DNA of 64,000 nt from the NCBI GenBank assembly GCA_001189165.1, contig LFCO01000001.1:156848-220847 (forward strand), in the 5' to 3' direction. The position numbers were made by a program, and so were the translations under genes. Shown in pieces: positions 21,233 to 55,575 of the stretch. The notes below the pieces were generated by a model that ran no database searches, was not told where the DNA came from, and worked only from the letters and a program-made list of their open reading frames with translations. Source of the DNA: Parcubacteria bacterium C7867-005 (GTDB taxonomy: Bacteria; Patescibacteriota; Minisyncoccia; Phycocordibacterales; Zambryskibacteraceae). Numbering within the stretch: the stretch's first letter is position 1; each line of letters begins with the position of its first letter.

Positions 21233-21266
21233 CTCGCCTTCTTTCTTTTACTCTCCAAGCTTTGGT

Positions 21267-38634: not shown

Positions 38635-39361
38635 AATAAAATTCGTATTTTTTGGATCTTCAGAGTTCTCAAATATCGTTTTGAATACCCTCAAAGAAAA
38701 TGGCTTTGAGCCCGTGCTGTCTGTGACAAACGCCAAGAAGCCATTAAACCGAGCGGAGCTGGAGTCTCTTGGTGCAGATGTTTTTATAGTTGCTTCATTT
38801 GGTAAAATCCTACCTGACTGGCTGATCTATATGCCCAAATTTAAAACTCTGAATGTCCACCCATCGCTTCTACCCAAACTCAGAGGTCCTTCTCCTATCC
38901 AAGGAGCAATACTTTCTGGAGAACGGATGGGGGTGACGATACAACAAATAAACGAACGGGTGGACGCTGGTCCTATCCTCACCCAAAAAGAAGTGGTCCT
39001 CGAGCAGAACCTTGGTTACAGAGAAATAGAGAAGATACTCGCGCATGAAGGAGCTCTCTTGCTCAAAGAGATATTGACTAAGCTAGTAAACGGTGATGTG
39101 CAGGGTGTAGAGCAGGATCACAGCGAAGCAACCTACACTAAGATGATCACCAAAAATGACGCAGATGTATCAAATGACACGGATGATGTGGCCCTGCGCA
39201 AGGTACGTGCATATGAAGTGTGGCCCCGTGCTAGGAAAGGTGATTTGATCATCACTAAAGCTCATATTGAAGACGGTAAATTCGTCATCGACCGCATAAT
39301 ACCTCCTGGTAAAAAAGAGATGGATTTCAAAGATTATTTGCGAGGCAATAAAATAGACTAA
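38627..39361 (+). CDS. fmt: methionyl-tRNA formyltransferase (compact)
   Basis: Formyl-transferase N-domain NVHPSLLPKLRGPSPIQGAIL (SLLP motif) plus C-terminal domain; 8-nt overlap with def. Confidence 0.85.
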   Translation: MNRIKFVFFGSSEFSNIVLNTLKENGFEPVLSVTNAKKPLNRAELESLGADVFIVASFGKILPDWLIYMPKFKTLNVHPSLLPKLRGPSPIQGAILSGERMGVTIQQINERVDAGPILTQKEVVLEQNLGYREIEKILAHEGALLLKEILTKLVNGDVQGVEQDHSEATYTKMITKNDADVSNDTDDVALRKVRAYEVWPRARKGDLIITKAHIEDGKFVIDRIIPPGKKEMDFKDYLRGNKID

Positions 39362-39750
39362 GGCTTTCTACGGAAACCACTGAGGCGACTACCCAACCCT
39401 CTCATCATATTTTTTACGGCTCTCTGGCCACGTCTCATTAGGCTTATTTTTCTCCCCTTTTCGCTGATTAATTCCCTAGCCAATTCGCTTTCAACTAAAT
39501 CTATGGCTGAGTACAAATCTTCCGCTTCAGATACAGCATAATTATCAAAACCCGCACCACTTATCTTGACCTCTGCTCTAAAAAAATCCCCATTCTTGTG
39601 GTGTTTGGTCGTTTTACCAACCTCAACATTAAAAATAGCTCCCTCTTTGCCTTTTCCTAAAAACTTTTCCAAAGTTCCTATCTTTTTTTGAGCGTATTCC
39701 CTGATAGCATCCGTCAATTCTATCCCCGTCGCTTTGAGATTTATATTCAT
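39358..39750 (-). CDS. hpf: ribosome hibernation promoting factor / RaiA family
   Basis: MNINLKATGIELTDAIREYAQKKIGTLEKF... typical sigma-54-modulation/HPF fold, basic C-tail. Confidence 0.85.
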   Translation of the reverse strand: MNINLKATGIELTDAIREYAQKKIGTLEKFLGKGKEGAIFNVEVGKTTKHHKNGDFFRAEVKISGAGFDNYAVSEAEDLYSAIDLVESELARELISEKGRKISLMRRGQRAVKNMMRGLGSRLSGFRRKP

Positions 39751-39814
39751 AGGCCTTGGTTAAAATTTATAATATCTCCCTCTATATTCTACTAGAACCC
39801 TTTTTCTTTTTCAT

Positions 39815-40879
39815 TTAAACACTACCGGTGTCTAACCATTCTTTACGGACAATAAAATATATATCAAGGAGAGCAAACAACAAACCAAGAGCGAGAGGGC
39901 CCAGGAGGAAACCGAGTGGACCAAAAAGGCCCAGGCCTCCGAGGATCGAAAGCAGTATGAGGAACGGATGGATATGCATCCCCCTCTCCAACAACTTTGG
40001 ACCAAGGAAATTATCCACTAGACCAACCGCCGTTACCCCCCAAACAAACAAACCAACTGCATGATAAGTAGATCCAGACACAAACAGATAAATAATGGCC
40101 GGGCCTATAACCAGAGAAGTCCCGAAGCCGGGTATCATCGCTGCTATGGCTGCCACGCTTCCCCACAAAAGCGCACTCGGCACGCCAAAAATTAAGAATC
40201 CGAGAGATGTAAGGGCGCCCTGAACTATAGCAACGACTAATATACCCTTGATAACAGAATTAACTGCAAGTGAAAGTCTCTTGAAAATCTCTTCATCGTG
40301 GTTGTCTTTTAGTGGGCTCATGGCTAAAACTGTTTTCTTGATCGCTTGTCCATCTTTGAATGAGAAATAGAGAGCGATGAGGAAAACAAAAACACCGACC
40401 ACTATTTTCAAAAGATTAGAAAGTATAGAGCTAAGGTGTGGAATCAGCCATGCGAGACCCTCGCGTGCATATTGACTCAAATCTATAGAAAATCCGGCTT
40501 GGTTTGGTACAAAGTATTTCAAACCATTGATCGCACCCTCTGAGCCGAGAGTGAGAGTGCTCGAGCCTTCGTTGGTCATCAGGTAAAAATAAAGAGTAGA
40601 AGCTTCTTGGAAAATCTGAGAAGCAAAAAAGGAGATAGGTAAAATCACCAAAATAAAAACCAAAATGACGCTCAAAATAGCAGAGAGTCCCCTTTTGCCA
40701 CCTGTAAAGGAGAGGATATATTTGTGAAGTGGGTCAAAAACCGTGGCGAAAACCACCGCCAGTATGAGCGAGTACAGAAACGGCCAAAAAATTGAGAAGA
40801 TTAAAATAAATACAAGAGAGAGTAATACTATCAAGAAATAAAGTTCTGACTTGCGATGAATCATGTTTTTATTATACAA
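39815..40879 (-). CDS. AI-2E family transporter (PerM/UPF0118)
   Basis: 8 TM helices, conserved AMIPGFGTSLVIGPAIIYLF segment. Confidence 0.85.
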   Translation of the reverse strand: MYNKNMIHRKSELYFLIVLLSLVFILIFSIFWPFLYSLILAVVFATVFDPLHKYILSFTGGKRGLSAILSVILVFILVILPISFFASQIFQEASTLYFYLMTNEGSSTLTLGSEGAINGLKYFVPNQAGFSIDLSQYAREGLAWLIPHLSSILSNLLKIVVGVFVFLIALYFSFKDGQAIKKTVLAMSPLKDNHDEEIFKRLSLAVNSVIKGILVVAIVQGALTSLGFLIFGVPSALLWGSVAAIAAMIPGFGTSLVIGPAIIYLFVSGSTYHAVGLFVWGVTAVGLVDNFLGPKLLERGMHIHPFLILLSILGGLGLFGPLGFLLGPLALGLLFALLDIYFIVRKEWLDTGSV

Positions 40880-40884
40880 CCAAA

Positions 40885-41748
40885 CTAGTCAAAAATATTG
40901 ATCAGGAATGTGTCTATCTCTCTCTGATCCATGTTGTAGAAAGTTGTTTTGTCCTTATGTATTTCCCTGGCCAGTTTTTCTCCAACAAATCTCCAGTGCC
41001 ATGGCTCATACTGATAAAAAGAATTACCTTTCGGATAAGAGAGGATGAATCCGTATTTATAAGCATTGTCTACTAGCCACTCAAATTCCTTTGTCTGGTC
41101 AAACGCGATAACCAATGCTCCGGTGAGTGTTTTAGTGGTGAGGTCTACTGTAGTACCAAGCTGGTGCTCTGAGTATCCCTGATCAGCGGAAAAGGCATTG
41201 GCCCCGGAGCCATAAGTAACCTTGTAGCCGAGTTTTAGGTTAATCTGCTCGTCGAATGAGCGGTAGCCAGAAGAGATCAAAATATCCAAGTCGTCATCTT
41301 TGGCATCTTCGAGCATATCCTCGAGGAATGATCTGGCCTGACTATGAAATTTGATATCTCTTTTTTCATAAACAAAATCATCTTCTATGAGTGATACCCC
41401 GTCTGGTATATAGTTCTCGTTCAAGAAATATACCTTTGAGTATTTCTGTAAGAGCTCCTTGTCGAGTTTTCGAAGTTTTTCTAAGTCACCGACTGTATCA
41501 GATATATCTCCAATCTGTTCTTTGAATTCATCATTGATCCTGCGTTCATTCTCTAGTCCGAGATTTAGATCGTTATTTTTCTGTTCTTGCGCCAAAACTA
41601 CCGCTTTTAGACTCTCAACTTCTTGGTTCAAGTGTTTTTCTGTTGCCTTGAGGTTAAATCTTTCTTTAATAAGAAAAAAGTACCCGCCGAGCACTGCGAG
41701 TATGATCACTACAATCAACGCCCTATCCCTTTCTAGATACGCTTTCAT
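40885..41748 (-). CDS. D-alanyl-D-alanine carboxypeptidase, VanY/M15B family
   Basis: N-terminal TM; SGYRS, SEHQLGTTVDL, EPWHWRF zinc-peptidase motifs. Confidence 0.8.
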   Translation of the reverse strand: MKAYLERDRALIVVIILAVLGGYFFLIKERFNLKATEKHLNQEVESLKAVVLAQEQKNNDLNLGLENERRINDEFKEQIGDISDTVGDLEKLRKLDKELLQKYSKVYFLNENYIPDGVSLIEDDFVYEKRDIKFHSQARSFLEDMLEDAKDDDLDILISSGYRSFDEQINLKLGYKVTYGSGANAFSADQGYSEHQLGTTVDLTTKTLTGALVIAFDQTKEFEWLVDNAYKYGFILSYPKGNSFYQYEPWHWRFVGEKLAREIHKDKTTFYNMDQREIDTFLINIFD

Positions 41749-41836
41749 AATTAAATTTTAGCATGGTTAAGCCAAATGAAGAAAACATAATTAAAAGAGC
41801 GCCACCTCATACGAGGGGCGCCTGGAGCACATCAGA

Positions 41837-42094
41837 TCACTTCGGGACCTTCTCCCCCGCCGAGCCGGTGTCGACCGGAGGCTTCACCGGAGCACCGACC
41901 CCAGCACCTGCGTCGGGGTTCTTCGGAGGCCTGGGCGCGACCCTGTGCGGGATGGAGAACGACCCCGTCACACCCTTGTCCTTCTTGCTCGAGCGCCTCA
42001 CCAGGTAGACACCCAGGATGATGAGCCCGAGGACGACCGAGGTAACGATCTTGTGCTGGGAAAGCAGTGACAGCAGTTCGTCCATCGACGGCAT
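41837..42094 (-). CDS. GC-rich small membrane protein with Pro/Gly/Ala-rich tail (cassette 10, 85 aa)
   Basis: GGAGGG 4 nt upstream of ATG 42094 (minus); MPSMDELLSLLSQHKIVTSVVLGLIILGVYLV TM; very high GC3 on this strand; bulged 9-bp hairpin plus T-run downstream (about 41775-41822); the overlapping plus ORF was rejected. Confidence 0.5.
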   Translation of the reverse strand: MPSMDELLSLLSQHKIVTSVVLGLIILGVYLVRRSSKKDKGVTGSFSIPHRVAPRPPKNPDAGAGVGAPVKPPVDTGSAGEKVPK

Positions 42095-42211
42095 GTGCCC
42101 TCCATGAGGGTGATAGGTTGGTGGGAGATCAAAGCCTATACCCAAAATGCAGTAATGGCCCAAAAAAGTCAAACGGTAGTTAATAACATCAAATTTGTAT
42201 AAAATAAACCA

Positions 42212-43300
42212 ATGACAGATCAAATAAGAAAATTGTTCCTATTTTTAATTATCCCTATTATTTTTCTATTCATTGGGTTTTATGCACGAGATCTAAACCT
42301 TCTATCCGAGAAGGCCGGGTCGACCAAAGAAGCTGGGGTGGTAAAACTCGAGGTGACCACGAAAGAAACCGCTCCAACAGCAAAGACGGGCACAGATTCA
42401 ACTACAGTTCCTCCAACTCCAGCAAAAACTACAAAGAAAGCTACGGCACCAGTAGTATCTACACCTGCTGTACCTACACCCGTTGTATTTACGCCTGTCA
42501 CATCCGGCACAGGAGCATCAAAAGTAGTATTTCTTTCTGATTGGAGTAACTCAACCGGCACTGGTCAATCTGCGGTTGGAGATGGGGGCAAGTGGAGCAT
42601 CTTGGGTAATGTGAACGAGGTTATAGAAAATGAAGGACTTGGCCTCCCTATTAGAGTAGAGAATGTTCTTCGAATCCCCGGTGCTACTGGGGGCACAAAT
42701 AGAAAATCAGGTATGCCACCTATGACCGTTGGTGTAGCTAGGAACTATAGACTCTATTTCAGAAATGATATGCCGTTCCCTACCTCTGACACACAGACCC
42801 ACCCATTCCAAGACGGCAACGCTGGGAGCCAGATCAACTGGGCAGTTATCTTTCATAACACCGTAAGCGCAAATCAAATAAAAATAGGCTTCACTCCATA
42901 CACCCAGAGTAGTGGTTGTACGACTTATTGGTATGGTCCGAACCTTAATAAAGGAACGTGGTATTTACTTGATTGGCAAATCATCTACAGAACAACTACT
43001 ACATTGAATGCTTACATAAGAGTATCCGATGCTTCTGGAAATGTTTTGTATGATTCTGATGATTTTGTTCCAGAAGCTTACTGTGGGTCGTCATCTCTGG
43101 CCACGTTTAACTCAAATAATACTTTTACTGCAAATCCCGGAGGAGGAATAAGCAGATCTGATGGATTAAATATTGGTACAAACGATAACATGCCAGAATT
43201 TGCACCAACATACGGCCACCAAGCGGCAGTTGCCGTAGTCGATGGTTTGCCCCAAGGAACATTTATAGGTCCTTATGGTTCAGTGGCTGGAGAGAATTAA
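42212..43300 (+). CDS. membrane-anchored secreted protein with Thr/Pro-rich linker and C-terminal beta-rich domain
   Basis: N-terminal TM LFLFLIIPIIFLFIGFYA; linker TAPTAKTGTDSTTVPPTPAKTTKKATAPVVSTPAVPTPVVFTPV; C-terminal domain of unknown function with a similar architecture to 22967..24229. Confidence 0.65.
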   Translation: MTDQIRKLFLFLIIPIIFLFIGFYARDLNLLSEKAGSTKEAGVVKLEVTTKETAPTAKTGTDSTTVPPTPAKTTKKATAPVVSTPAVPTPVVFTPVTSGTGASKVVFLSDWSNSTGTGQSAVGDGGKWSILGNVNEVIENEGLGLPIRVENVLRIPGATGGTNRKSGMPPMTVGVARNYRLYFRNDMPFPTSDTQTHPFQDGNAGSQINWAVIFHNTVSANQIKIGFTPYTQSSGCTTYWYGPNLNKGTWYLLDWQIIYRTTTTLNAYIRVSDASGNVLYDSDDFVPEAYCGSSSLATFNSNNTFTANPGGGISRSDGLNIGTNDNMPEFAPTYGHQAAVAVVDGLPQGTFIGPYGSVAGEN

Positions 43301-43303
43301 CCA

Positions 43304-43555
43304 ATGACAAACAAAAGATTGTCAGATGGCACTGTGCATAAGATATCCACAGATTTGGAGAAACTTCTTACTTCTGCATCAAAAGCACGAACGGCGTGGG
43401 AGGATATAACCCCTCTCGCTCGCAACGAATGGATATGCTGGATCGAGTCAGCCAAAAAGCTGGAGACAAGAGAAAGTAGAATCGAAAGAACCGTATCAGG
43501 ACTAAAAAACGGAAAACGCCGCCCCTGCTGTTGGGCTGGATGTATACATCGATAA
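43304..43555 (+). CDS. YdeI/OmpD-associated family protein
   Basis: NEWICWIESAKKLETRESRIERTVSGLKNGKRRPCCWAGCIHR matches the conserved C-terminal signature of that family. Confidence 0.75.
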   Translation: MTNKRLSDGTVHKISTDLEKLLTSASKARTAWEDITPLARNEWICWIESAKKLETRESRIERTVSGLKNGKRRPCCWAGCIHR

Positions 43556-43620
43556 AATACCTATCTACTTAAAAACCACAAAGGAGACCACAACACCCAA
43601 ATCTAGTTGATATCTGTCAT

Positions 43621-43649
43621 TTGACTCTAATACCCCCTGGGGGTATTAT
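43621..43649 (+). promoter_or_regulatory. csoR promoter TTGACT-17-TATTAT overlapped by CsoR-type operator TAATACCCCCTGGGGGTATTA
   Basis: -35 43621-43626, -10 43644-43649; 21-bp near-perfect inverted repeat 43628-43648 (10-bp arms); ATG at 43656, 6 nt after the -10 with no SD, so probably leaderless. Confidence 0.75.
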
Positions 43650-43655
43650 CAGTGT

Positions 43656-43922
43656 ATGAGACAAGATATCAAAACAAAAGCCGTCCGTCGATTAAAAATT
43701 GTGGAGGGACAAATCAGAGGACTTCAAAAGATGGTTGAAGACGAGAAATACTGTATCGACATTATTACCCAGGCATCCGCTATTAAAGAGGCTCTTACCG
43801 GGATCGAGAGTCTGGTCCTTGAAAACCATCTTTCGACCCATGTGGTACATCAAATGAAACATGGAAGTGAAAAGAAAGCCGTCGATGAGATCCTTAAGGT
43901 TTATAAACTAAAGCGTAAATAA
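43656..43922 (+). CDS. csoR: copper-sensing transcriptional repressor CsoR (DUF156)
   Basis: 88 aa, YCIDIITQASAIKEALTGIESLVLENHLSTHVV with the conserved Cys/His metal ligands of CsoR/RcnR. Confidence 0.85.
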   Translation: MRQDIKTKAVRRLKIVEGQIRGLQKMVEDEKYCIDIITQASAIKEALTGIESLVLENHLSTHVVHQMKHGSEKKAVDEILKVYKLKRK

Positions 43923-43925
43923 AAT

Positions 43926-46253
43926 ATGAATCATCCTACCAAAACCTACAGAGTCAAAGGAATGCACTGTGCGTCATGTGCAGGTATCATCGAGAAGACT
44001 TTCAAGAAAACGGAAGGGGTTCATTCCGCAGAGGTGAACTATGGGACCGAAAGGGCAAAAGTAGTTTTGGATGAGTCAAAAGTAAGTGCTCAAGAACTTT
44101 CAAAGAGAATAGAACCATTGGGTTACTCCCTAGCCCTGGACCAGGAGATGTCACATGAGCATGGTAGTCAGTCAGCAGAAGAGATGGGTATGTCTGCGGA
44201 CGAGCATGCGGCTCATCTTGGAATAGGTCAGTCAAAGAAAGAGAGGCTTGCTGAAGTTGCAGATATGAAAACTAAAGTCTGGTCCGCCATTCCTCTTGCA
44301 ATCTTTGCAGCACTAGTTATGGCATGGGATATCCTGGCTCAGTATGGGGTTGTGGGAGAAATGAGTTATACGATCAAAGAATTTATTCATCATCTCCTTC
44401 CAATACTAGCGACATATATCCTCTTTGTTGTAGGAAGACCTTATCTACTCGGCTTTTACCGCTTTCTCCGCTACGGCAAGGCAAACATGGATACCCTTAT
44501 CGGTATTGGAACTACTGCTGCATTTTTATACAGCTTTGTAGTTACCGCTTTTGAGGAAGCGCTTCGACCTTTCATAAATGTTGATTACCAATACTACGAC
44601 GTCACGATCGTGGTTATTACCTTTATCGCACTCGGCAAATATCTTGAAGCTCGATCAAAGATAAAGACTGGTGATGCAATAGAAAAACTTCTTAATCTTC
44701 AGGCAAAGACAGCACTTGTGATCCGAGATGGAAAAGAGATAGAGATTTCAGTCAATGAAGTAAGGCATGGTGATCTAATTATCGTTAAGCCGGGTACAAA
44801 GATTCCAGTAGACGGAGTCATTACCGAGGGATCTTCCTTTATCGATGAATCAATGGTTACCGGAGAGCCAATGCCTGCACAGAAAAAGACTGGAGACAAT
44901 GTCGTATCTGGCACTATAAATACAAGCGGTTCATTCACTTTTAAGGCTACAAAGGTTGGGTCCGAAACACTTCTTGCTCAGATTATAAAGATGGTTGAGG
45001 ATGCTCAGGGTAGTAAAGCGCCAATTCAGGCGCTCGCAGACAAGATTTCATCAATCTTTGTACCTATTGTTCTAGTGATTGCATTCCTTACCCTTGGAGC
45101 ATGGCTCATCATCGGATCGCAATATCTGGGCTTCTCCCAAGCGCTTTCATTCGGCCTCGTATCATTCGTAGGTATCCTGGTTATTGCTTGCCCATGTGCT
45201 CTCGGTCTTGCTACGCCAACAGCAATCATTGTGGGAGTTGGCAAAGGAGCTAAAGAAGGTATTCTCATCAAAGATGCTGCAACACTTGAAAAACTTCATA
45301 AGGTAAATACGGTTGTGGTTGATAAAACAGGGACCATTACTAAAGGCAAACCAACGCTCGTCGATATACAAAACATGTCTGATTTAAAAGATGACAATCT
45401 TGTATCAATACTTGCTTCGCTTGAGAAAAAATCAGAACACCCTATCGCACACGCGATTGTGAGTTACGCTCAGGAAAAGAATATCTCCGTATCCGACATC
45501 TCTGACTTTGAGGGTATACAGGGCAAAGGACTCAAAGGAACTATTGGTGGTACGGAATATTTTGTTGGTAATGCAAAGCTTGTAAGTGACCTCGGACTTT
45601 CTTTTGATGTAGCCAAGCTTAATGAGTTTACTTCTCAAGGTAAAACACCTGTCATTCTAGCCAGCAAAGAAAAGGTTCTCGGTTTTGTGATGGTGGCAGA
45701 TGAAATAAAAGCTGAATCAATAGAAGCAGTCAAAAATCTTCATGCTCTTGGAATCAAAATGGTCATGCTCACCGGAGATGATGAGGAAGCAGCAAAATAT
45801 ATAGCATCACTCGTTGGAATCGATGATGTCGTGGCTCATGTTCTTCCGCAAGATAAGCTAAAGAAAATTCAAGAGCTTCAATCACAAGGTCGGGTGGTGG
45901 CCATGGCTGGTGATGGAGTAAATGACGCTCCTGCACTTGCCCAGGCTGATGTGGGTATCGCCATGGGGACTGGAACCGATGTGGCCATCGAGTCCGCAGG
46001 CATCACACTCCTTGGCGGAGATATCTCAAAGCTTGTTAAAGCAATTAAGCTTTCAAAGATCACTATGCGAGGAATTAAACAGAACCTATTCTGGGCATTT
46101 ATCTACAACATTGTAGGCATTCCGCTTGCGGCAGGAGCTTTGTATCCGGTTTTCGGATGGCTCCTAAACCCTGTCTTCGCAGGATTCGCCATGGCGATGT
46201 CTTCGGTATCAGTCGTATCAAACTCACTGCGCATTAAGGCTAAAAAGTTATAA
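43926..46253 (+). CDS. copA: copper-translocating P1B-type ATPase
   Basis: N-terminal HMA GMHCASCAG, CPC motif ACPCALGLATP, DKTGTIT phosphorylation site, GDGVNDAPAL hinge. Confidence 0.95.
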   Translation: MNHPTKTYRVKGMHCASCAGIIEKTFKKTEGVHSAEVNYGTERAKVVLDESKVSAQELSKRIEPLGYSLALDQEMSHEHGSQSAEEMGMSADEHAAHLGIGQSKKERLAEVADMKTKVWSAIPLAIFAALVMAWDILAQYGVVGEMSYTIKEFIHHLLPILATYILFVVGRPYLLGFYRFLRYGKANMDTLIGIGTTAAFLYSFVVTAFEEALRPFINVDYQYYDVTIVVITFIALGKYLEARSKIKTGDAIEKLLNLQAKTALVIRDGKEIEISVNEVRHGDLIIVKPGTKIPVDGVITEGSSFIDESMVTGEPMPAQKKTGDNVVSGTINTSGSFTFKATKVGSETLLAQIIKMVEDAQGSKAPIQALADKISSIFVPIVLVIAFLTLGAWLIIGSQYLGFSQALSFGLVSFVGILVIACPCALGLATPTAIIVGVGKGAKEGILIKDAATLEKLHKVNTVVVDKTGTITKGKPTLVDIQNMSDLKDDNLVSILASLEKKSEHPIAHAIVSYAQEKNISVSDISDFEGIQGKGLKGTIGGTEYFVGNAKLVSDLGLSFDVAKLNEFTSQGKTPVILASKEKVLGFVMVADEIKAESIEAVKNLHALGIKMVMLTGDDEEAAKYIASLVGIDDVVAHVLPQDKLKKIQELQSQGRVVAMAGDGVNDAPALAQADVGIAMGTGTDVAIESAGITLLGGDISKLVKAIKLSKITMRGIKQNLFWAFIYNIVGIPLAAGALYPVFGWLLNPVFAGFAMAMSSVSVVSNSLRIKAKKL

Positions 46254-46255
46254 TC

Positions 46256-47287
46256 ATGACTACGCAAACACAAAAATATACCTTTCACGTACATGGTATG
46301 CACTGCAATGCTTGTGTACTCATGACGGAAAGCGAACTTGGAAATCTTCCAAATATCACCCACGTTAAATCAAGCCTTAAAAATCATTCAGTAGAAGTTA
46401 CTGGAGACTTCGGTAATAAGACACCGGAGCAGATTGCAGAAGAACTCACTATACCACTCAAACCTCATGGTTATATTGTTTCGGTTGAAAAACAAATCAA
46501 AGAAAAGAAATGGGCGGATTTTAAAATCGCTATGCCGATCGCACTAGGCTTTGCAGTTCTGTTTGTGGTGCTTCAGAAAATGGGAATAGTAAATCTTGTA
46601 AGCGCAGGCAATGTTACTTACGGCACAGCGTTTGTAGTTGGTATCATTGCATCGCTTTCAACATGTATGGCAGTTGTTGGTGGTTTGGTCCTATCGATGT
46701 CGGCTACCTTTGCAAAAGAAGGTGACAGGGTACGACCTCAGCTCATGTTCCATACTGGCCGAATAGTATCGTTTTTTATCCTGGGTGGTGTGATCGGAGC
46801 GATTGGATCTGCATTTACGCTCAACACTTCAGCCACATTCATTCTGAGTCTCATCATCGGTATTGTCATGCTCATTCTCGGTATTAACCTTCTTGATACA
46901 TTCCACTGGGCAAAAAAACTGCAGCCGTCAATGCCAAAGTTTATTGCCAAGCACGCTCATGGCGTCTCGAAATTCAACCACACTCTTACACCACTTCTTG
47001 TCGGTATCGCTACGTTCTTCCTACCATGCGGATTCACACAATCAATGCAGCTCTACACCCTTACCACAGGTTCATTCTTGCGGGGCGGTTTGACCATGCT
47101 CGCTTTTGCACTTGGTACACTTCCGGTCCTGGCGCTTATCAGCTTCAGCTCATTCAGTATTCAGAAAAGCTCAAGGGCAGGAATCTTCTTCAAAACTGCC
47201 GGACTGATCGTCATTATGTTCGCACTCTTCAATCTTATTAATAGCTTGGTCGTGATTGGGGTTATACCGCCAGTCTTTAACTTCTAG
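46256..47287 (+). CDS. HMA-domain membrane protein (TauE/SafE- or DsbD-like permease fused to a metal-binding domain)
   Basis: N-terminal HMA GMHCNACV; 6-7 TM helices with paired Cys (LSTCM ... FLPCGF); copper-operon context. Confidence 0.7.
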   Translation: MTTQTQKYTFHVHGMHCNACVLMTESELGNLPNITHVKSSLKNHSVEVTGDFGNKTPEQIAEELTIPLKPHGYIVSVEKQIKEKKWADFKIAMPIALGFAVLFVVLQKMGIVNLVSAGNVTYGTAFVVGIIASLSTCMAVVGGLVLSMSATFAKEGDRVRPQLMFHTGRIVSFFILGGVIGAIGSAFTLNTSATFILSLIIGIVMLILGINLLDTFHWAKKLQPSMPKFIAKHAHGVSKFNHTLTPLLVGIATFFLPCGFTQSMQLYTLTTGSFLRGGLTMLAFALGTLPVLALISFSSFSIQKSSRAGIFFKTAGLIVIMFALFNLINSLVVIGVIPPVFNF

Positions 47288-47300
47288 TATAATTCCAATT

Positions 47301-47687
47301 ATGAAAGCAGCTATTATCTCAGTTATCGTCGCAATAGTCCTCATCGATGGAGCTTTTATACTCACCAGAAGTGGTGACACCGGACAGACCGTAAACGCAA
47401 ACAACGTCAGCATTGTTGATGGAAAACAAATTATAGAAATAACTGCTAGAGGTGGTTACCAACCTAGAAAGAGCGTTGCTGAGGCGGGTATTCCGACAAT
47501 CATTCGATTCAACACCAAGGGGACCTTTGACTGTTCATCATCTGTCCGTATTCCAAGTCTTGGCATAAGCAAATCACTTCCACAGACAGGATCGACAGAT
47601 ATCGATATTGGGAGCGGCAAACTCGGCACGCTTCAGGGTTCTTGCGGAATGGGGATGTATCCGTTTGAAGTCGAATTTCAGAGCTGA
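47301..47687 (+). CDS. cupredoxin-like small secreted protein
   Basis: N-terminal TM/signal anchor; C-terminal ...FDCSSSVRIPSLG...GSCGMGMYPFEVEF resembles copper-binding cupredoxin-like domains of cop operons; start moved to ATG 47301 to avoid overlapping the upstream gene. Confidence 0.6.
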   Translation: MKAAIISVIVAIVLIDGAFILTRSGDTGQTVNANNVSIVDGKQIIEITARGGYQPRKSVAEAGIPTIIRFNTKGTFDCSSSVRIPSLGISKSLPQTGSTDIDIGSGKLGTLQGSCGMGMYPFEVEFQS

Positions 47688-47699
47688 GGCTCCGCGTCT

Positions 47700-47772
47700 A
47701 GGGCTCGAACCTAGGACCTAGCGATTAACAGTCGCTTGCTCTACCAGCTGAGCTAACGCGGAATACTGTATC
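47700..47772 (-). tRNA. tRNA-Asn (anticodon GUU)
   Basis: Hand fold: acceptor UCCGCGU/ACGCGGA, D-stem GCUC/GAGC, anticodon stem AGCGA/UCGCU with loop CUGUUAA, T-stem CUAGG/CCUAG with loop UUCGAGC, discriminator G73; CCA not encoded. Confidence 0.9.
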
Positions 47773-47884
47773 CTCTTGGATACAGAGCAAATCATACCAA
47801 AATACAAAGTCTGGGCAAGTTTTATACGACAACCCTCGCCTGCTTTGATACAATAAACACAACTACAAGCTGATCATTTAAAAT

Positions 47885-48433
47885 ATGAAAAAAATAATCG
47901 CGATCCTAGTACTCATCCTAATAGCTTTCGGGGTTTGGTTTTTCTACAATGCGGCTCAATCAATCCCTTCAGAAAACCCAGACAATCAAACAAATACAAC
48001 AAAACCAGATGCATCAAATGCTTCATTTGAATTTGAGGATGGTCTGATCAAATTAACCAAAGGCAAAAATGAACAGGAAGTCGCACCAGGAAGCGCGATG
48101 GTCCAAGAAACCGTCCTTACGGACCTTAAAAGCTATGGCGACTTGAACGGGGACAACAAACAAGACAGCGCAGCAGTCCTAGTGCAAAGCGGTGGTGGCT
48201 CAGGGGTGTTTTTCTACATCGGAGCATATGTTTCTGGCCCCGTTTCTTATAAAGGTAGCAACGTAGTCTTCTTTGGTGACCGCATTGAACCAAAATCTAT
48301 ATCAGTCAAAAACGGAGTGATCACTTTGGAATATCTGGACCGAAAACTGACTGATTCATACGACGTGGAACCCACCATCAAAACCACCAAAAAATTCTCT
48401 TTATCTAAAGGAATCCTCGTAGAGGCAAAATAG
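47885..48433 (+). CDS. membrane-anchored hypothetical protein (182 aa)
   Basis: N-terminal TM MKKIIAILVLILIAFGVWFFY then a soluble domain; no motif recognised. Confidence 0.55.
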   Translation: MKKIIAILVLILIAFGVWFFYNAAQSIPSENPDNQTNTTKPDASNASFEFEDGLIKLTKGKNEQEVAPGSAMVQETVLTDLKSYGDLNGDNKQDSAAVLVQSGGGSGVFFYIGAYVSGPVSYKGSNVVFFGDRIEPKSISVKNGVITLEYLDRKLTDSYDVEPTIKTTKKFSLSKGILVEAK

Positions 48434-48485
48434 AGACCTATCCAGTATTGCCCGTTTATCGAATTTATGCTTTAATTGCATCCTT

Positions 48486-50276
48486 ATGGAAATTAGGAAT
48501 ATTGCAATTATCGCCCACGTCGACCACGGCAAGACGACCCTCACTGACGCAATCATGCGCCAAACGGGCATGGTTGAAGAAGGTGTATCTATGGACTCAA
48601 ACGACCTAGAAAAGGAGCGTGGGATCACCATCTACTCTAAAAACACTTCGATCTTCTTCAAAAACACCAAAATCAACATTGTGGACACACCTGGCCACTC
48701 TGACTTCGGATCTGAAGTAGAACGTGTTCTGAGGTCAATAGACACTGTTCTCCTCGTTGTGGATGCCCAAGAGGGCCCCATGCCTCAAACGAGGTTCGTG
48801 CTAAAGAAATCCCTCGAACTCGGCCTCAAACCGATTGTCATCATCAACAAGATAGACAAACCAGCCGCACGTCCAGAAATCGTCCATGAAATGGTTCTTG
48901 AACTTTTCCTCGAACTCGGGGCTAACAATGATCAGATCGACTTCCCCACTGTCTATGCCATTGGCCGTGAAGGTGTAGCCAAGAGAAACCTCTCTGACGA
49001 GTTCAAAGACCTCACACCCCTACTTGACGTCGTTCTAGAACATGTACCCCCAGCCAAAGCAGACCTCACCGTCCCAGTGCGACTCCAGCCATTCAACCTC
49101 GCATACGACAACTTCCTTGGGCGCCTCGCCATCGCTCGTATATACGAAGGCGTGATCAAAAATGGTCAGGAAGTTTGGATCAAGAAACCGGACGGCACTT
49201 CTTATAAAGGAAAGGTGACCAAACTTTATACATTCGAGGGTATCAAACGCGTAGAAAGCGCAGAGGCAGTCGCTGGAGATATTTGTATGATCGCTGGTCT
49301 ATCTGAGATATACATCGGAGACACTATCACTGGTGCAGAGAATATCGAGGCACTTCCTACTATCAACGTGGACGAACCTACTATCTCCTTGAACTTTTTC
49401 GTGAACGATTCTCCATTTGCCGGACGCGAAGGCAAATTCGTCACCGGTAGACAGATACGTGAAAGACTTGAAAAAGAGCTCGAGGTGAACGTGGGACTCA
49501 AGGTTGATTTTTCATCCAGCGAACAACTCACTGTATACGGCCGTGGTGAACTACACATAGCCATCCTGCTCGAAAACATGCGCAGAGAAGGATTCGAAGT
49601 TCAAGTTTCTCAACCACACGTCATCATAAAAGAAGAGAATGGCAAAAAATTCGAGCCATTCGAAGAAGTGGTTATAGATGTGCCAGAAGAAATGTCCGGA
49701 GCAGTTATATCCAAGCTCACAGAGAGACGTGGAATACTGATGGACATGAAAACAGAAAACGGGCAGACTCGTTTGATACTCGAAGCACCTACCCGTGGGC
49801 TTCTCGGATACCGTGGACAGTTCGTCGTAGACACCAAGGGTTTGGGCATCTTCTCTTCTCGCCTTACTGCATTCAAGGATTACGCGGGTGTTATAAACCA
49901 TCAGTCAGTTGGTTCCATGATATCTATGGAGAACGGCAAGGCTCTCGCTTTCGCACTGGATAACTTACAGCAACGTGGAGTGCTCTACATCGCTCCGGGT
50001 ACAGAAGTCTATGAAGGCCAAGTCATCGGCAACACCTCAAAAGGAGAGGATTTGTATGTGAACCCAACCAAGGGTAAACAGCTGACCAACATGCGCGCTT
50101 CTGGTTCAGATGATTCAATCTTCCTCGTACCAGCATGGGAACTTTCGATAGAGAGATCAATGGAAATAATGAACGAAGACGAATACATAGAAATCACGCC
50201 GACATCTACACGCCTCCGCAAGCAATACCTCACTCAGCAAGACCGCGCCAAATCCCTCCGCAAAGATTTGAAATAA
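48486..50276 (+). CDS. typA: translational GTPase TypA/BipA
   Basis: IRNIAIIAHVDHGKTTLTD, DTPGHSDF, NKIDKP G-motifs; EF-G-like domains; 596 aa. Confidence 0.92.
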   Translation: MEIRNIAIIAHVDHGKTTLTDAIMRQTGMVEEGVSMDSNDLEKERGITIYSKNTSIFFKNTKINIVDTPGHSDFGSEVERVLRSIDTVLLVVDAQEGPMPQTRFVLKKSLELGLKPIVIINKIDKPAARPEIVHEMVLELFLELGANNDQIDFPTVYAIGREGVAKRNLSDEFKDLTPLLDVVLEHVPPAKADLTVPVRLQPFNLAYDNFLGRLAIARIYEGVIKNGQEVWIKKPDGTSYKGKVTKLYTFEGIKRVESAEAVAGDICMIAGLSEIYIGDTITGAENIEALPTINVDEPTISLNFFVNDSPFAGREGKFVTGRQIRERLEKELEVNVGLKVDFSSSEQLTVYGRGELHIAILLENMRREGFEVQVSQPHVIIKEENGKKFEPFEEVVIDVPEEMSGAVISKLTERRGILMDMKTENGQTRLILEAPTRGLLGYRGQFVVDTKGLGIFSSRLTAFKDYAGVINHQSVGSMISMENGKALAFALDNLQQRGVLYIAPGTEVYEGQVIGNTSKGEDLYVNPTKGKQLTNMRASGSDDSIFLVPAWELSIERSMEIMNEDEYIEITPTSTRLRKQYLTQQDRAKSLRKDLK

Positions 50277-50295: not shown

Positions 50296-50703
50296 CTAAG
50301 AACTGTTCTTTTCTAGATACTCGTCGATGGCCTCTTTGGCCTTAGCCACAACTTCTTTTGGATTGTACTCACTCTTTACTAAATATTTTACCGCTCCGAG
50401 TGCCAAGGCCTTTTCAGCGTCTTCTTTGCCAGCTAGATTCGTCAGACAAATAACAACGGGAATTTTTTTGAATTTCTCATTGTTTTTCATTTTTTCCAAT
50501 ACTTCTAGTCCATTCAGCTTTGGCATCATTATATCGAGCATCATCACCACAGGAAGTGGGTCCATTTTTTCAAGTTTTTCCAAAGCTTCTATACCATCTG
50601 AAGCCATCTCCACTTCATAACCAGATAATTCAAATATGTTCTTGTACATATCAGACATCAACGAATCGTCCTCTACTATAAATACTTTTATTTCTTTGGC
50701 CAT
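50296..50703 (-). CDS. response regulator, receiver domain only (CheY-like)
   Basis: KVFIVEDD, MLDIMMP (phospho-acceptor Asp), conserved T and K; no output domain. Confidence 0.85.
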   Translation of the reverse strand: MAKEIKVFIVEDDSLMSDMYKNIFELSGYEVEMASDGIEALEKLEKMDPLPVVMMLDIMMPKLNGLEVLEKMKNNEKFKKIPVVICLTNLAGKEDAEKALALGAVKYLVKSEYNPKEVVAKAKEAIDEYLEKNSS

Positions 50704-50749
50704 TGGTTTTTAGTTATCTTGTTTACTGAATTCGCAGACAGAGCATATA

Positions 50750-52936
50750 TTATGCAACGACGACAGGGAGGGACAACCTGAATGTACTACCCTCGCCCAA
50801 ATCGCTCTTAACTAATTCTATTGTACCACCCATTTCTTCAGCCAAAAGCTTGGAGATATACAGCCCCAAGCCCGTGCCCTTACTGGAATCTCTGGTCAGT
50901 ATCTTTTCACCCGCCTGTTGGAATTTCCTAAACAACAATGACTGATTTTCCTTGGATACTCCCTTACCGGTGTCTTCGATGATCACATCCGCGAACCCTT
51001 CTCTGGCCTGAAGGGAGATGGTGATACCCCCTTTCTCCGTATAATTTATCGCATTGCCCAAAAGATTATTGATAATTTGTCTTGTCCTTTCAACATCAGC
51101 AAAAGCTTCTGGCACAGCCTTATCAGAAAGCTTAAATTCAAGTGATAATTTTTTATTTTTGGTGAGCTGTTCCGTCTCTTGGACAACCTGATTTATCATT
51201 CTAACAAGATCTATGGGTTTACTATCAAAGACTATTTTTCCTTGCTCAAGTCTAGACATGTCCAAGAAATCATTCACAATTCCTATCAAACTTTTGCTTG
51301 CAGTATGTATATTATGAATCATGTTTTTCTTCTTTTCTTCATCAAGTTTGGCCCAGTAGTCGAGCATCATATCCGCATTACCACGAATAGCAGTAAGTGG
51401 TGTTCGGAGTTCGTGGCTAGCCACAGCAAAAAATTCTTCTCTAGAACGCTCAGTAACCTTTCTCTCAGTTATATCCTCAAGGAGGATGACGTAGCCGATT
51501 TTATTCTTTGATTCATCAGCCAATAGAATTGGAGCAATAATGGCGCGGAGTGACTTTTTATTAAAGAATATCTCGTTTATTTCACAAACTCTTTCTCCCT
51601 CAAGGCATTTTTTAACCTGATCTTTCAGGTCGAAGCTCTCTCCCATCATCTTAGATACATCTCCTACAGTAAGTTCCTTATCTTCATTTATTCCTAATAA
51701 ATCAACAAGGGCATGATTTTTCAAGAAGATCGTGTCATCTACATTAGCGATGATAAATCCAAGGGACAAGCTGTTTATTGATGCGAGCAACCTTGCCTTT
51801 TCCTCATTCAATTCTTTTGTTCGCTCGACAACTTGTTGCTCAACATTTTTCATTTGAACAGCTAATTTCTCTTCGAGGATCTTGTCATCCTCGAGCAAAT
51901 TAATCATGGCTTTCTTTGTTTCCTCGAGGTCAACAAGTTTTTTGTCGAGTTCTTGAGTTCTATCTTTTATTTTTGCTTCCAAACCAATCGTATACTGAGA
52001 AATGCTCTTCACCATGCCATTGAAGGCATTGGCTAGTGTCTCAAGCTCGTCATTTGTATTTATATGGGTCACCGTATCGAGCTTTCCCTTACCAAACTCC
52101 TCAACAGCAGAAACTAGCTTATAGAGTGGGTTTAAGATGAATTGCCGAACAGACAAAATAGTACCCAGGCTAAAAAATATAGATCCTATAACTGATATTA
52201 GAACTAGCCTTCTCCTCGCCTCTTGCTCTGTTTCATCAAGGGCACGTGTGCTTTTTTCTATGGAGTCATTTGTCCGGCTTATTAACTCTCTCATTTTTAT
52301 ATTTGCGAGCTCAGTAAACTCACGGGCCTTGTCTATAGAAATTTTTGATTTCTGTTTCTCTTGTTCTGAAGCTATATTTCTATTTTCTTTTTTAAGGTTT
52401 AAGAAGTTCAATCTGTGCTTGATAGCATCTTCTGCGTTGTTAACAAAGCCCGTATAGTAAAGATTTATCTCACCAGTGATCTGCGAATCACCCTTCATCA
52501 CCCCGTCGACCACAAGTTCATCCCTTAACCCCAATTTAATCCATTGATCATAGTTTTTACCACCTGAAGAATTTTTAAAAGCATCCGTCTCACTACCCCA
52601 CATGAGAGCTGCCATAAACATATTAAAACGATCAGTAGATTCACTGAACACCCTTACATAACCACTAACATCAGGTATTTTTTTGGGGTCGTCTATATCC
52701 AAAACACTCTCAAGAGCTGTTTGCCCCTCAACAGCAGCGGACAGCGACTCCTGCAGGCTCCGTACCACAGGAACATTTGTTTTAGTAATATTATCTGCAG
52801 ATGATCTAATCCGATTCAATTCAAAAATCTGAGTCCCAACAATACAAATGACAAAAAATGTAAGGGAAATGTAGAACGGTGCGAGCTTCCACTGTATTCC
52901 AAAAAAAGACTTGTTTTGTGGGCTATTTATAGTCAT
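50750..52936 (-). CDS. sensor histidine kinase (periplasmic sensor, HAMP, coiled coil, PAS, HisKA, HATPase_c)
   Basis: Two TMs flanking a sensor domain of about 230 aa; H-box FAVASHELRTPLTAIRG; N/G-boxes NLLGNAINYT, DTGKGV, GTGLGL. Confidence 0.88.
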   Translation of the reverse strand: MTINSPQNKSFFGIQWKLAPFYISLTFFVICIVGTQIFELNRIRSSADNITKTNVPVVRSLQESLSAAVEGQTALESVLDIDDPKKIPDVSGYVRVFSESTDRFNMFMAALMWGSETDAFKNSSGGKNYDQWIKLGLRDELVVDGVMKGDSQITGEINLYYTGFVNNAEDAIKHRLNFLNLKKENRNIASEQEKQKSKISIDKAREFTELANIKMRELISRTNDSIEKSTRALDETEQEARRRLVLISVIGSIFFSLGTILSVRQFILNPLYKLVSAVEEFGKGKLDTVTHINTNDELETLANAFNGMVKSISQYTIGLEAKIKDRTQELDKKLVDLEETKKAMINLLEDDKILEEKLAVQMKNVEQQVVERTKELNEEKARLLASINSLSLGFIIANVDDTIFLKNHALVDLLGINEDKELTVGDVSKMMGESFDLKDQVKKCLEGERVCEINEIFFNKKSLRAIIAPILLADESKNKIGYVILLEDITERKVTERSREEFFAVASHELRTPLTAIRGNADMMLDYWAKLDEEKKKNMIHNIHTASKSLIGIVNDFLDMSRLEQGKIVFDSKPIDLVRMINQVVQETEQLTKNKKLSLEFKLSDKAVPEAFADVERTRQIINNLLGNAINYTEKGGITISLQAREGFADVIIEDTGKGVSKENQSLLFRKFQQAGEKILTRDSSKGTGLGLYISKLLAEEMGGTIELVKSDLGEGSTFRLSLPVVVA

Positions 52937-52945
52937 CAGTTCGTA

Positions 52946-53581
52946 CTACAATAAATTTTTTATGACAGATAGATCAAATACGCCCTTGAGCACGCCGTGA
53001 ACTTCTCCTGATGCGGGGTCTATGATTGGCAGATATATGGATATAGCTTCAGTCTGTGAGCTATCGTCAAATTCTATGTCTCCGTGAAAAGTTCTCCCCT
53101 TACCCTCATTAAAGCTTTTTATCCACCAATCCTCGTCTGCCTGGTAATAATCGCTAGTCTTCTCTGTCTGACCGACGTTTAATCCAAAAGCATCAGCCAC
53201 GAAAATCTCTTTAAAACCAGGATTTTTCTTTTGAAACTCTAGGAGATGTGTGGCTGTCTTGTTTTCTAAGAACATTTGCGTGAATTGACTTATGCCCATC
53301 GATTCTCTCCATGTTTTATCTATAGCAAGAATGTCTTCTAAACTAGTGTTTTTGTTTATCTCGTTTGATTTTTTAGTTTCTTCAATTATCTCTGTGACCA
53401 GTACTAGAGTTTTTAAAAGTGATATCTGCTGATCAATTATATTTTCGATTTGTGGGGCAAGAGTGGCTGTCTCTTTAATCTCTGTTTTAGTAGATATATC
53501 TTTTTTATTTGCTGTATAAAGATAAATACCACCCGAAGAAATTATTATTACAAGAACAACAAAAGTGACAATTTTTTTCAT
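52946..53581 (-). CDS. membrane-anchored extracytoplasmic sensor-like (Cache/PDC-fold?) protein
   Basis: N-terminal TM then a 190-aa domain; fold assignment is inference; operonic with the kinase. Confidence 0.5.
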   Translation of the reverse strand: MKKIVTFVVLVIIISSGGIYLYTANKKDISTKTEIKETATLAPQIENIIDQQISLLKTLVLVTEIIEETKKSNEINKNTSLEDILAIDKTWRESMGISQFTQMFLENKTATHLLEFQKKNPGFKEIFVADAFGLNVGQTEKTSDYYQADEDWWIKSFNEGKGRTFHGDIEFDDSSQTEAISIYLPIIDPASGEVHGVLKGVFDLSVIKNLL

Positions 53582-53583
53582 AT

Positions 53584-54315: not shown

Positions 54316-54354
54316 ACTTATATGATACTCTTTAAATAGATCAACACCATACCT

Positions 54355-55125: not shown

Positions 55126-55134
55126 AGAACATAC

Positions 55135-55575
55135 ATGTCGGAGCAAAAAGATAAAATTATGATATTGGATGACGATCCACTTCTCGTGGATCTATATTCA
55201 ACAGCATTTACCTTGTTCGGCTACGAAGTAGTCACGGGGTTTCGCGGTGACGAAGGTTTGCAGAAACTAATAGACATGGATATCAAACCTATTATCATAC
55301 TGTCTGACGTGATGATGCCGAACATGCATGGATTAGATTTCTTGAGAAAGATTAAGGAGGACCCAAAATTAAAAACTATTCCTGTCGTACTTTTGACAAA
55401 CCTGGATGGAACAGATGATATCCGAAGAGGGCTGGAGCTCGGTGCGGTAACTTATATAGTAAAAAGTGCCTATTCACCAAAAGAAGTTGTGAATAAAGTT
55501 AAGGAAATCCTAGCTGGTTATGACAGAGAGAAAACTCCTGAGGTCAAGACTATTATAAAGGGCCTTAGCTCGTAA
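55135..55575 (+). CDS. response regulator, receiver domain only (CheY-like), paralog of 50296..50703
   Basis: IMILDDDP, ILSDVMMP, LLTNL, KS/AYSPKEVV, all alignable with the other receiver. Confidence 0.85.
   Translation: MSEQKDKIMILDDDPLLVDLYSTAFTLFGYEVVTGFRGDEGLQKLIDMDIKPIIILSDVMMPNMHGLDFLRKIKEDPKLKTIPVVLLTNLDGTDDIRRGLELGAVTYIVKSAYSPKEVVNKVKEILAGYDREKTPEVKTIIKGLSS

Follow-up and report, generated by a model that had tools for sequence, protein, structure and literature searches.

Does a bacterium with a reduced genome carry a copper-export operon governed by its own metal sensor, and if so, is that operon a fixed part of the genome? The question is raised by four co-directional genes in a 64,000-nucleotide stretch of contig LFCO01000001.1 of Parcubacteria bacterium C7867-005, a member of the candidate phyla radiation (CPR); the whole stretch is referred to below as the window. 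The genes encode a CsoR/RcnR-family repressor, a CopA-type P-type ATPase, a membrane protein in which an HMA domain is joined to a DsbD_2 domain (HMA-DsbD_2), and a small protein that resembles the copper chaperone CupA (Table 1). An earlier inspection of the letters, here called the sequence-only reading, had given the gene order as csoR-copA-HMA/permease-cupredoxin, and Pfam supports all of these labels. On the evidence set out below, the genes very probably form a copper-responsive export operon repressed by CsoR. The regulation is of the canonical CsoR/CopA type and nothing in it is categorically new. Three modest variations are of some interest: the ligand set of the sensor, the presence of a CupA-like protein without a cupredoxin-type CopA, and the housing of the genes in an apparently mobile cassette in a CPR bacterium.

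The operator consists of two perfect 10-nt arms about a central T (TAATACCCCC-T-GGGGGTATTA). It covers positions -28 to -8 relative to the inferred transcription start site (TSS), that is, the 17-nt spacer and the -10 hexamer of the csoR promoter. Its core, ATACCCC-CTG-GGGGTAT (ATACCCC-N3-GGGGTAT), equals the published CsoR box of Corynebacterium glutamicum, ATACCCCnnnGGGGTAT, as quoted in PMC5057107, and the promoter of a copA operon is thus overlapped by a GC-tract inverted repeat, as for functional Cu(I)-CsoR repressors. The palindrome occurs as a single copy in the window, where 100 shuffles gave an expectation of 0 matches at up to three mismatches. The repeat-finding program omitted it because the arms lie 1 nt apart, which is a limitation of the tool and no evidence against the palindrome; it was checked by pattern search and script. 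The sequence-only reading had described a 21-bp inverted repeat overlapping a TTGACT-17-TATTAT promoter as a textbook CsoR operator. Direct reading and the script bore this description out, and the operator proved to be conserved. Among 80 related csoR loci that were fetched for comparison (L001-L080), 74 have the operator upstream of csoR with its right arm running into a -10-like hexamer. Together with the window these give 75 sites, at least 42 of which have a TTGACN -35 element at 16-18 nt.

In a promoter scan of 42000-49000 the csoR promoter scored 10/12 and was the joint best promoter-like site. The equal score belongs to a site on the minus strand (43672-43645), which shares letters with the AT-rich operator palindrome; this site has no divergent gene to serve and was taken as a by-product of the palindrome. 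The total number of promoter-like sites in this interval was not above chance, so the assignment of the csoR promoter rests on its position and its conservation.

The window CsoR matches PF02583 with 89.5 bits (cutoff 22.8), residues 6-83 covering profile positions 2-76 of 78. Its best matches in the Protein Data Bank (PDB) are all copper CsoRs (4M1P, 4ADZ, 3AAI, 2HH7, and 7MQ1). Residue alignment to 4M1P, 4ADZ, 3AAI, and 2HH7 gives x-Cys33-His58-His62 as the ligands and Tyr32/Glu78 as the second shell. The third ligand position is occupied by Cys in the CsoRs of Mycobacterium tuberculosis (Mtb), Geobacillus, and Streptomyces but by His in that of Thermus thermophilus (3AAI). The canonical x-C-H-C fingerprint (Mtb C36/H61/C65) is therefore broken at Z, which is His62, with X (C33) and Y (H58) both present. 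The full pattern is the x-C-H-H fingerprint of the T. thermophilus type, with C33/H58/H62, Y32/E78, and an N terminus, MRQDIKTKAV, that lacks a W ligand; this subgroup of CsoRs is described in a 2024 review (PMC11672702). The sequence-only reading had named missing CsoR ligand residues as a point that would tell against it, and of the three ligands Cys33 and His58 are in place and one is changed, so that the objection applies in part.

The C-H-H set is found in all 120 closest database homologues, among which Tyr32, Cys33, His58, and Glu78 are invariant. With the window CsoR included, an extra His65 occurs in 107 of 121 sequences and His69 in 83. The RcnR/InrS fingerprint calls for His at position 3, where the window protein has Gln and the homologues have Q, K, P, E, A, or L but never H; the FrmR (P-C-H-x) and CstR (x-C-x-C) fingerprints are absent as well. 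Both ligand sets occur in the 80 related loci, 46 of which encode a C-H-H and 34 a canonical C-H-C repressor. Because the operator is the same for both, and because the CopA proteins of the C-H-C sister cassettes are 81-86% identical to the window CopA, there is good comparative evidence that the two sensor types would respond to the same metal. A rough neighbor-joining tree, drawn without support values, groups the C-H-C alleles in a single subclade nested within the clade of Patescibacterial CsoRs. The T. thermophilus CsoR falls well outside this larger clade, so that the His at the third position probably arose independently.

Cu(I)/Ag(I) ATPases of the P1B-1 group are recognized in the Arguello classification by CPC in transmembrane segment TM4/6, NX6YNX4P, MXXSSX5(N/S), DKTGT, and a GMxCxxC HMA domain. 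All of these are found in the window CopA: GMHCASC at residue 12 (C15/C18), CPC at 422-424, DKTGT at 466, NX6YNX4P at 720, and MXXSSX5N at 756. The protein scores 612.8 bits against NCBIfam TIGR01511 (cutoff 397). Its N terminus is a classical HMA domain (PF00403, E 3.4e-16) and gives no Cupredoxin_1 match. Between this domain and the first transmembrane helix lies a Met/His-rich linker, QEMSHEHGSQSAEEMGMSADEHAAH (44140-44215, CopA residues ~73-97), which may be an extra metal-binding segment.

The start of csoR can be placed precisely. No in-frame ATG, GTG, or TTG lies between the in-frame stop codon at 43608-43610 and the ATG at 43656, and alignments of the window CsoR to solved CsoRs begin at residue 5-8; together these identify this ATG as the start. 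The sequence-only reading had put it 6 nt past the -10 hexamer and had seen no Shine-Dalgarno sequence. The intervening letters are indeed CAGTGT, and none of GGAG, GAGG, AGGA, or AAGG occurs in the 18 nt upstream of the ATG. A -10 element 6-7 nt before the start and the lack of a Shine-Dalgarno sequence are the marks of a leaderless gene. Placing the -10 hexamer at -12 to -7 would make the A of the start codon +1, and we consider it probable that the csoR mRNA is leaderless with its TSS on this A. The geometry is conserved: the first in-frame ATG lies 6-9 nt past the hexamer in 52 of the 75 sites and 0-12 nt past it in 69. Leaders of 20-43 nt occur in six, one of which (L078) has a clear AAAGGAGAG Shine-Dalgarno sequence. 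The over-long N termini of several database CsoR entries are translated operator (for example ...TPRGYHAG-MKQ...).

A leaderless csoR had also been proposed from the letters alone. Conserved geometry supports that proposal well, but the arrangement is not peculiar to csoR. TANNNT stands exactly 6 nt before the ATG at 15 of the 54 open reading frame (ORF) starts of the window, compared with 2.4% of all ATGs (binomial p 2e-12). Twelve of these 15 match TATAAT in at least five of six positions, and Shine-Dalgarno-like 4-mers are found at only 6 of the 54 starts. Examples of leaderless-type starts are those at 17303, 36103, 27706, 54315, 60992, and 63411 on the minus strand and 36185 on the plus strand. 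Many genes of this genome thus appear to be expressed from leaderless mRNAs; no description of leaderless expression in Parcubacteria was found in the literature searched. Most of the leaderless-type promoters of the window are without a good -35 element, and that of csoR is the best among them, in keeping with a strong promoter that has to be repressed.

The third protein of the operon fuses a cytoplasmic CxxC motif (C17/C20) to a polytopic domain of the LysE/DsbD superfamily that matches the CcdA/DsbD-like family DsbD_2 (PF13386) with 119 bits (cutoff 24.9). A membrane Cys137 and the motif FFLPC258GFTQxM264 are at least 90% conserved in 30 homologues of 32-93% identity. Matches of this protein in the PDB are limited to its HMA part, and a literature search on PF13386 found nothing.

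The fourth protein has an N-terminal hydrophobic anchor (residues 3-21) followed by a cupredoxin-fold domain with the residues Cys78...Cys115-Gly-Met117-Gly-Met119. Its best PDB sequence matches are Streptococcus pneumoniae CupA (2MRY/4F2E, E 1.3e-6) and the metal-binding domain (MBD) of pneumococcal CopA (4F2F). In the alignment, the CupA ligands, whose Cu(I) motif is given in PMC5552934, correspond to Cys78 and Cys115-Gly-Met117-Gly-Met119; these residues do not vary among 26 database homologues and are at least 90% conserved in 30 loci. An AlphaFold2 (AF2) model of the protein, with a pLDDT of 84-90 across most of the domain and below 50 for residues 1-33, is closest in fold to 4F2F and 4F2E (TM 0.81-0.82, rmsd 2.1 Å); CuA domains and an uncharacterised Bacillus anthracis Cupredoxin_1 protein are weaker fold matches. 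Ligand motif, predicted fold, and anchor are thus those of CupA and identify a putative Cu(I)-binding protein of the CupA kind rather than a blue-copper protein. The cupredoxin-type CopA that would partner it is missing, the CopA here having an HMA domain. Where the sequence-only reading had called the last gene a cupredoxin, the Cupredoxin_1 fold stands and the family changes, from redox cupredoxins to homologues of a Cu(I) chaperone. In public entries the family goes by the names "plastocyanin/cupredoxin domain-containing" or "hypothetical"; it comprises 2,658 clusters, and its best taxon-labelled matches are all from Patescibacteria.

The genes for HMA-DsbD_2 and the CupA-like protein occur together in all 30 testable loci. 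Their identities co-vary independently of CopA: relative to the window, one locus (L005) has 86% identity in CopA, 44% in DsbD2, and 53% in the CupA-like protein, and another (L027) has 76%, 90%, and 83%. A TATAAT hexamer stands directly after the HMA-DsbD_2 stop codon, 7 nt before the cupA-like ATG. Most cassettes have it at 6-8 nt from the ATG, even where the alleles share no more than 43-55% identity, which suggests an internal, operator-free leaderless promoter for the cupA-like gene.

The interval 43606-47687 is a self-contained copper-resistance cassette of 4.1 kb. DNA similarity to other cassettes (73-82% at the nucleotide and 80-97% at the amino acid level) begins at 43606-43621, at the -35 element, and ends at 47685-47688, at the last stop codon, which is abutted by the 3' end of a tRNA-Asn gene. 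No flanking genes are held in common with those cassettes. A metagenome scan with the lineage-specific 182-aa neighbor (p182) found no relatives, and synteny was taken from TypA homologues. The closest relatives by TypA (88-90% identity) supplied four loci, L081-L084, from three relatives, two with the same gene order. These loci keep MreB...def-fmt...HPF on one side of a variable slot and tRNA-Asn-p182-TypA-TruB-HisS on the other. The slot holds an AI-2E transporter, a cupin, and other genes in L081/L082; PMSR, a β-lactamase, OmdA, and an ice-binding-like protein in L083; and, in L084, a Toprim protein with a large serine recombinase of 531 aa, the gene for which runs at its 3' end into the 3' end of tRNA-Asn. 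Homology of the window to L083 ends at 43559, just past OmdA, and resumes at 47688, and homology to L084 resumes at 47689, so the lineage-specific segment is 43560-47687; the sequence-only reading had spanned 43560-47690. That reading had noted a YdeI/OmpD-associated gene before the operon, which Pfam bears out as OmdA/YdeI, and had suggested that the module may be accessory. In a presence/absence comparison the same tRNA-Asn site of the closest relatives was without the cassette. The cassette is very likely accessory and lies in a recombination hot spot at the tRNA-Asn 3' end. Upstream of OmdA, also in the variable segment, 42212-43300 encodes a 362-aa protein (p362) that has a membrane anchor at its N terminus, contains a Thr/Pro-rich linker, and gives no Pfam or NCBIfam match.

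Recombinases accompany the cassette in other loci. In L003-L005 a homologous serine recombinase that overlaps a tRNA-His 3' end is 2.3 kb away from it, a recombinase stands just downstream in L052 and L055-L057, and a homologue is found ~5 kb downstream in L006. This suggests a family of tRNA-targeting integrative elements in Patescibacteria with the copper cassette as cargo. The ~531-aa large serine recombinases with 3' ends over tRNA 3' ends lie at 2338-3994 in L084 (tRNA-Asn) and 6068-7725 in L003 (tRNA-His). Three extra genes stand between copA and HMA-DsbD_2 in some cassettes (L003 12600-14152; also L002 and L007), encoding a 205-aa protein of no family, a DUF305 protein, and a 73-aa protein. 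A classical tRNA-targeted island was considered for the window and rejected, the window having neither the recombinase nor the tRNA 3'-end direct repeat; both are seen in L084 and L003-L005. The record titles of several metagenome-assembled genomes with near-identical cassettes among L001-L080 read Saccharibacteria, Peribacteria, Gammaproteobacteria, or Spirochaetota. Cassette-bearing loci share few housekeeping genes with the window for judging cross-class transfer; these are 30-33% identical and possibly paralogues.

Table 1. Features of the copper cassette and its borders (positions are those of the window)
Feature	Position	Strand	Basis
OmdA/YdeI-family gene, left flank outside cassette	43304..43555	+	Pfam PF13376, E 2.2e-17
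-35 hexamer TTGACT	43621..43626	+	read from sequence; promoter scan; conservation
CsoR operator, 21-bp palindrome TAATACCCCCTGGGGGTATTA	43628..43648	.	pattern search and script; conservation
-10 hexamer TATTAT, partly made by operator right arm	43644..43649	+	sequence; promoter scan; conservation
csoR, 88-aa CsoR/RcnR-family repressor	43656..43922	+	Pfam PF02583 (Trns_repr_metal), E 1.8e-25; structure alignments
copA, 775-aa P1B-1 Cu(I)-exporting P-type ATPase	43926..46253	+	Pfam HMA, E1-E2_ATPase and Hydrolase; TIGR01511
HMA-DsbD_2 membrane protein, 343 aa	46256..47287	+	Pfam PF13386, E 3.1e-34, and PF00403
Internal TATAAT, candidate CsoR-independent leaderless promoter of cupA-like gene	47288..47293	+	sequence; conservation
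cupA-like gene, 128 aa	47301..47687	+	Pfam PF13473 (Cupredoxin_1); PDB sequence matches; AF2 fold matches
tRNA-Asn(GTT), right boundary of variable segment	47688..47762	-	ARAGORN and Rfam

These features can be assembled into the following scheme. When copper is scarce, a CsoR tetramer would sit on the palindrome, over the spacer and -10 element of a strong σ70 promoter, and block RNA polymerase. Cu(I) binding at a subunit-bridging site (Cys33, His58', and His62') would be relayed to the DNA-binding face by way of the conserved second-shell residues Tyr32 and Glu78 and would cause CsoR to leave the DNA. Transcription would then start from the A of the csoR ATG and give a leaderless, autoregulated polycistronic mRNA. 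The stop-to-start gaps along the operon are 3 nt (csoR to copA), 2 nt (copA to HMA-DsbD_2), and 13 nt, and the copA and HMA-DsbD_2 genes lack Shine-Dalgarno sequences. Because the gaps before these two genes are so short, both are probably translated by re-initiation; the cupA-like gene may in addition have its own constitutive leaderless promoter. CopA would pump Cu(I) from the cytoplasm. HMA-DsbD_2 and the membrane-anchored CupA-like protein, as a co-inherited pair, would probably catch Cu(I) at the membrane and pass it on.

Any specific role for the last two proteins is tentative, however. A fuller proposal, which we regard as rather unlikely in all its parts, is that they form a distinct two-component membrane module for Cu(I), acting as a relay, as an importer or exporter, or as a reductant shuttle for keeping the Cys/Met site in its reduced state. 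Such a module would stand outside both the CopZ-to-HMA-CopA and the CupA-to-cupredoxin-CopA pairings. It would be encoded by two genes that always adjoin each other, a block that recombines apart from copA and whose second gene has an apparent operator-free leaderless promoter of its own, and the cassette would have spread among Patescibacteria on tRNA-targeting serine-recombinase elements.

Several observations weigh against the scheme or against the accessory status of the cassette, and alternatives can be built on them. At the sensor, the third ligand is His and not Cys, and the T. thermophilus CsoR responds to several metals in vitro, as summarised in PMC5057107. The repressor might then sense something other than copper: Ni/Co as RcnR does, Zn/Cd, or reactive sulfur or aldehyde species as do CstR and FrmR. 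RcnR has the set H-C-H-H and a His at Z is considered to make for looser selectivity (PMC11672702), the additional His65 and His69 are conserved, and the NCBIfam matches of the window CsoR to RicR, RcnR, and FrmR are all sub-threshold. But an N terminus without His or Pro at the W position fits neither RcnR nor FrmR, the x-C-x-C of CstR is missing, and the closest solved structures are copper CsoRs throughout. All the regulated genes, moreover, are of Cu(I) type, and C-H-C alleles control near-identical CopA genes through the same operator. We regard a non-copper effector as very improbable. Next to csoR, the terminator scan found nothing between OmdA and the operon, so that a leadered read-through mRNA is possible; csoR would then not be leaderless but transcribed mainly from p362-OmdA or from some other promoter, and the palindrome would double as an RNA hairpin or terminator. 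As RNA the palindrome can pair into a 9-bp hairpin 7 nt before the AUG, but it lacks a U-tract, is not called by the terminator scan, and lies in a region that folds no better than shuffled sequence (z = -0.07); a terminator or RNA hairpin was rejected on these grounds. Palindrome and promoter are moreover kept with the cassette across wholly different upstream contexts. Read-through is also hard to square with the constant spacing, 6-9 nt at most related sites and 6 nt at 15 window starts, and a leaderless csoR has a precedent in Bradyrhizobium liaoningense, where 5'-RACE showed that transcription starts at the A of the start codon (PMC5057107). Read-through as the main source of csoR mRNA is improbable.

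For the membrane proteins, any membrane orientation given to the CupA-like domain, and any activity given to DsbD_2, be it transfer of electrons or of metal, would be conjecture. An electron-transfer cupredoxin of the type-1 "blue copper" kind is suggested as the product of the last gene by the Pfam family, by source annotations as a plastocyanin or cupredoxin domain protein, and by the N2O reductase CuA domains among the weaker fold matches. Type-1 sites need two histidines, however, and this domain has none. Its invariant Cys78, Cys115, Met117, and Met119 form the Cu(I) motif of CupA (PMC5552934), and its top folds are CupA and the pneumococcal CopA MBD, which leaves the blue-copper assignment scarcely tenable. 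As to acquisition, no recombinase homologue was found in the 64 kb of the window, a search for att-like repeats, a second copy of the tRNA-Asn 3' end, or direct repeats around 39300-47900 returned chance short matches only, and the GC content of the cassette is that of its flanks, so that a compositional case for transfer was dropped. "Saccharibacteria" and "Peribacteria" are, in addition, the labels of the most similar cassettes; such third-party taxon labels may be unreliable, or the cassette may cross class boundaries. A cassette that is ancestral, vertically inherited in this lineage, and lost from the sampled relatives would account for the even GC content and for the lack of an integrase and att repeats, and the ~80% nucleotide identity to the nearest cassettes means that any transfer was not recent. 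Against vertical descent, the four loci of three relatives keep their synteny with differing cargo, including a serine-recombinase element in the tRNA-Asn 3' end. CopA is 92-94% identical to that of non-syntenic genomes, more than the 88-90% by which the highly conserved TypA matches the closest relatives. The cassette is a mosaic, with discordant identities of its csoR, copA, and dsbD2-cupA blocks (L005 and L027), and recombinases lie by the cassette in at least eight other loci. We therefore hold an ancestral cassette to be quite improbable and favor an accessory one.

The operon shares with the canonical CsoR-CopA(-CopZ) operons of M. tuberculosis, Bacillus subtilis, C. glutamicum, Streptomyces lividans, and Geobacillus thermodenitrificans a PF02583 four-helix-bundle repressor, ATACCCC-N3-GGGGTAT over the promoter, autoregulation, a P1B-1 CopA as target, and the Tyr/Glu second shell. 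The CsoR of G. thermodenitrificans (4M1P) is the best PDB match of the window protein (E 1.4e-16). Unlike those operons, it has His62 in place of Cys, the HMA-DsbD_2 fusion and a CupA-like protein instead of a free-standing CopZ, and a CPR host with leaderless expression lacking Shine-Dalgarno sequences. The csoR-cueA divergon of B. liaoningense likewise has a leaderless csoR and a CsoR box over the -10 element (PMC5057107), but its genes are divergent and its sensor is C-H-C, whereas the present operon is co-directional and its TSS inferred. The CsoR of T. thermophilus HB8 (TTHA1719, 3AAI) is also an x-C-H-H protein with a conserved second shell and is encoded beside copA (PMC11672702); it is distant, however, its N-terminal His5 has no counterpart here, and His65 and His69 are extra in the window protein.

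In the cop operon of S. pneumoniae (copY-cupA-copA) the repressor is CopY rather than CsoR, and the cupredoxin MBD of CopA is said to be the cognate partner of CupA, whereas the CopA described here has a ferredoxin-like HMA. The cupA-like gene, unlike the pneumococcal one, is always paired with an HMA-DsbD_2 gene, and whereas CupA has been described as limited to a few streptococci, the cupA-like family comprises more than 2,600 clusters. COG2836 proteins of the gut-Firmicutes CsoR meta-regulon have the same HMA and DsbD_2 fusion and are computationally predicted to be under CsoR (PMC4938975). They also carry DUF2318 and are rarely in a copA/csoR operon (PMC4938975). Here, by contrast, the HMA-DsbD_2 gene is fixed in the operon and paired with the CupA-like gene.

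A second public record, GCA_002396705.1 (DGYO01000004.1), is 100% identical to the window over 21.8 kb. Its csoR (L085, 5246-5437) is called as a 63-aa protein from Met26, without helix 1, its HMA-DsbD_2 gene (L085, 7813-8802) is called 14 codons short, and its OmdA/YdeI gene is uncalled. An exact-sequence look-up of the 88-aa CsoR gave no match. Short or absent public gene calls of this kind are probably artefacts of gene finders that expect a ribosome-binding site. Because many of its genes initiate leaderless and without a Shine-Dalgarno sequence, public calls for this genome misplace the 5' ends of genes.

Two other features of the window may be recorded. The interval 18855-19860 has a GC content of 0.53 compared with ~0.42 for the genome and contains ORFs overlapping on both strands with no convincing gene; an Rfam search of 17200-22000 at a relaxed threshold gave one weak, implausible match and nothing at 18855-19860. 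Just downstream of TypA, 50296-57007 is a dense signalling cluster of response regulators, a HAMP/HisKA kinase, PAS domains, and dCache sensors, which is notable in a reduced genome.

The sequence-only reading had considered a full copper-efflux module atypical of a minimal-genome symbiont. That view does not hold. Close relatives of the window CsoR are present in at least 421 species-representative genomes, nearly all labelled Patescibacteria in a genome scan, and CsoR comprises 2,402 clusters; copA in Patescibacteria has already been remarked on (PMC8672522). Ultra-small CPR bacteria thus commonly carry, and would appear to exchange, a regulated copper-export cassette. Chaperones resembling CupA, a type believed to occur in a few streptococci only, are widespread, and in the present cassette their supposed cupredoxin-type CopA partner is missing. 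An x-C-H-H sensor, a type whose metal specificity is unsettled, shares its cassette type and operator with canonical C-H-C sensors, and these natural C-H-H and C-H-C alleles, borne by cassettes that are equivalent in other respects, provide existing material for testing how a Cys-to-His swap affects metal selectivity. The regulation itself is textbook, and the locus is of value chiefly because it is well documented and comes from a group that has been little studied.

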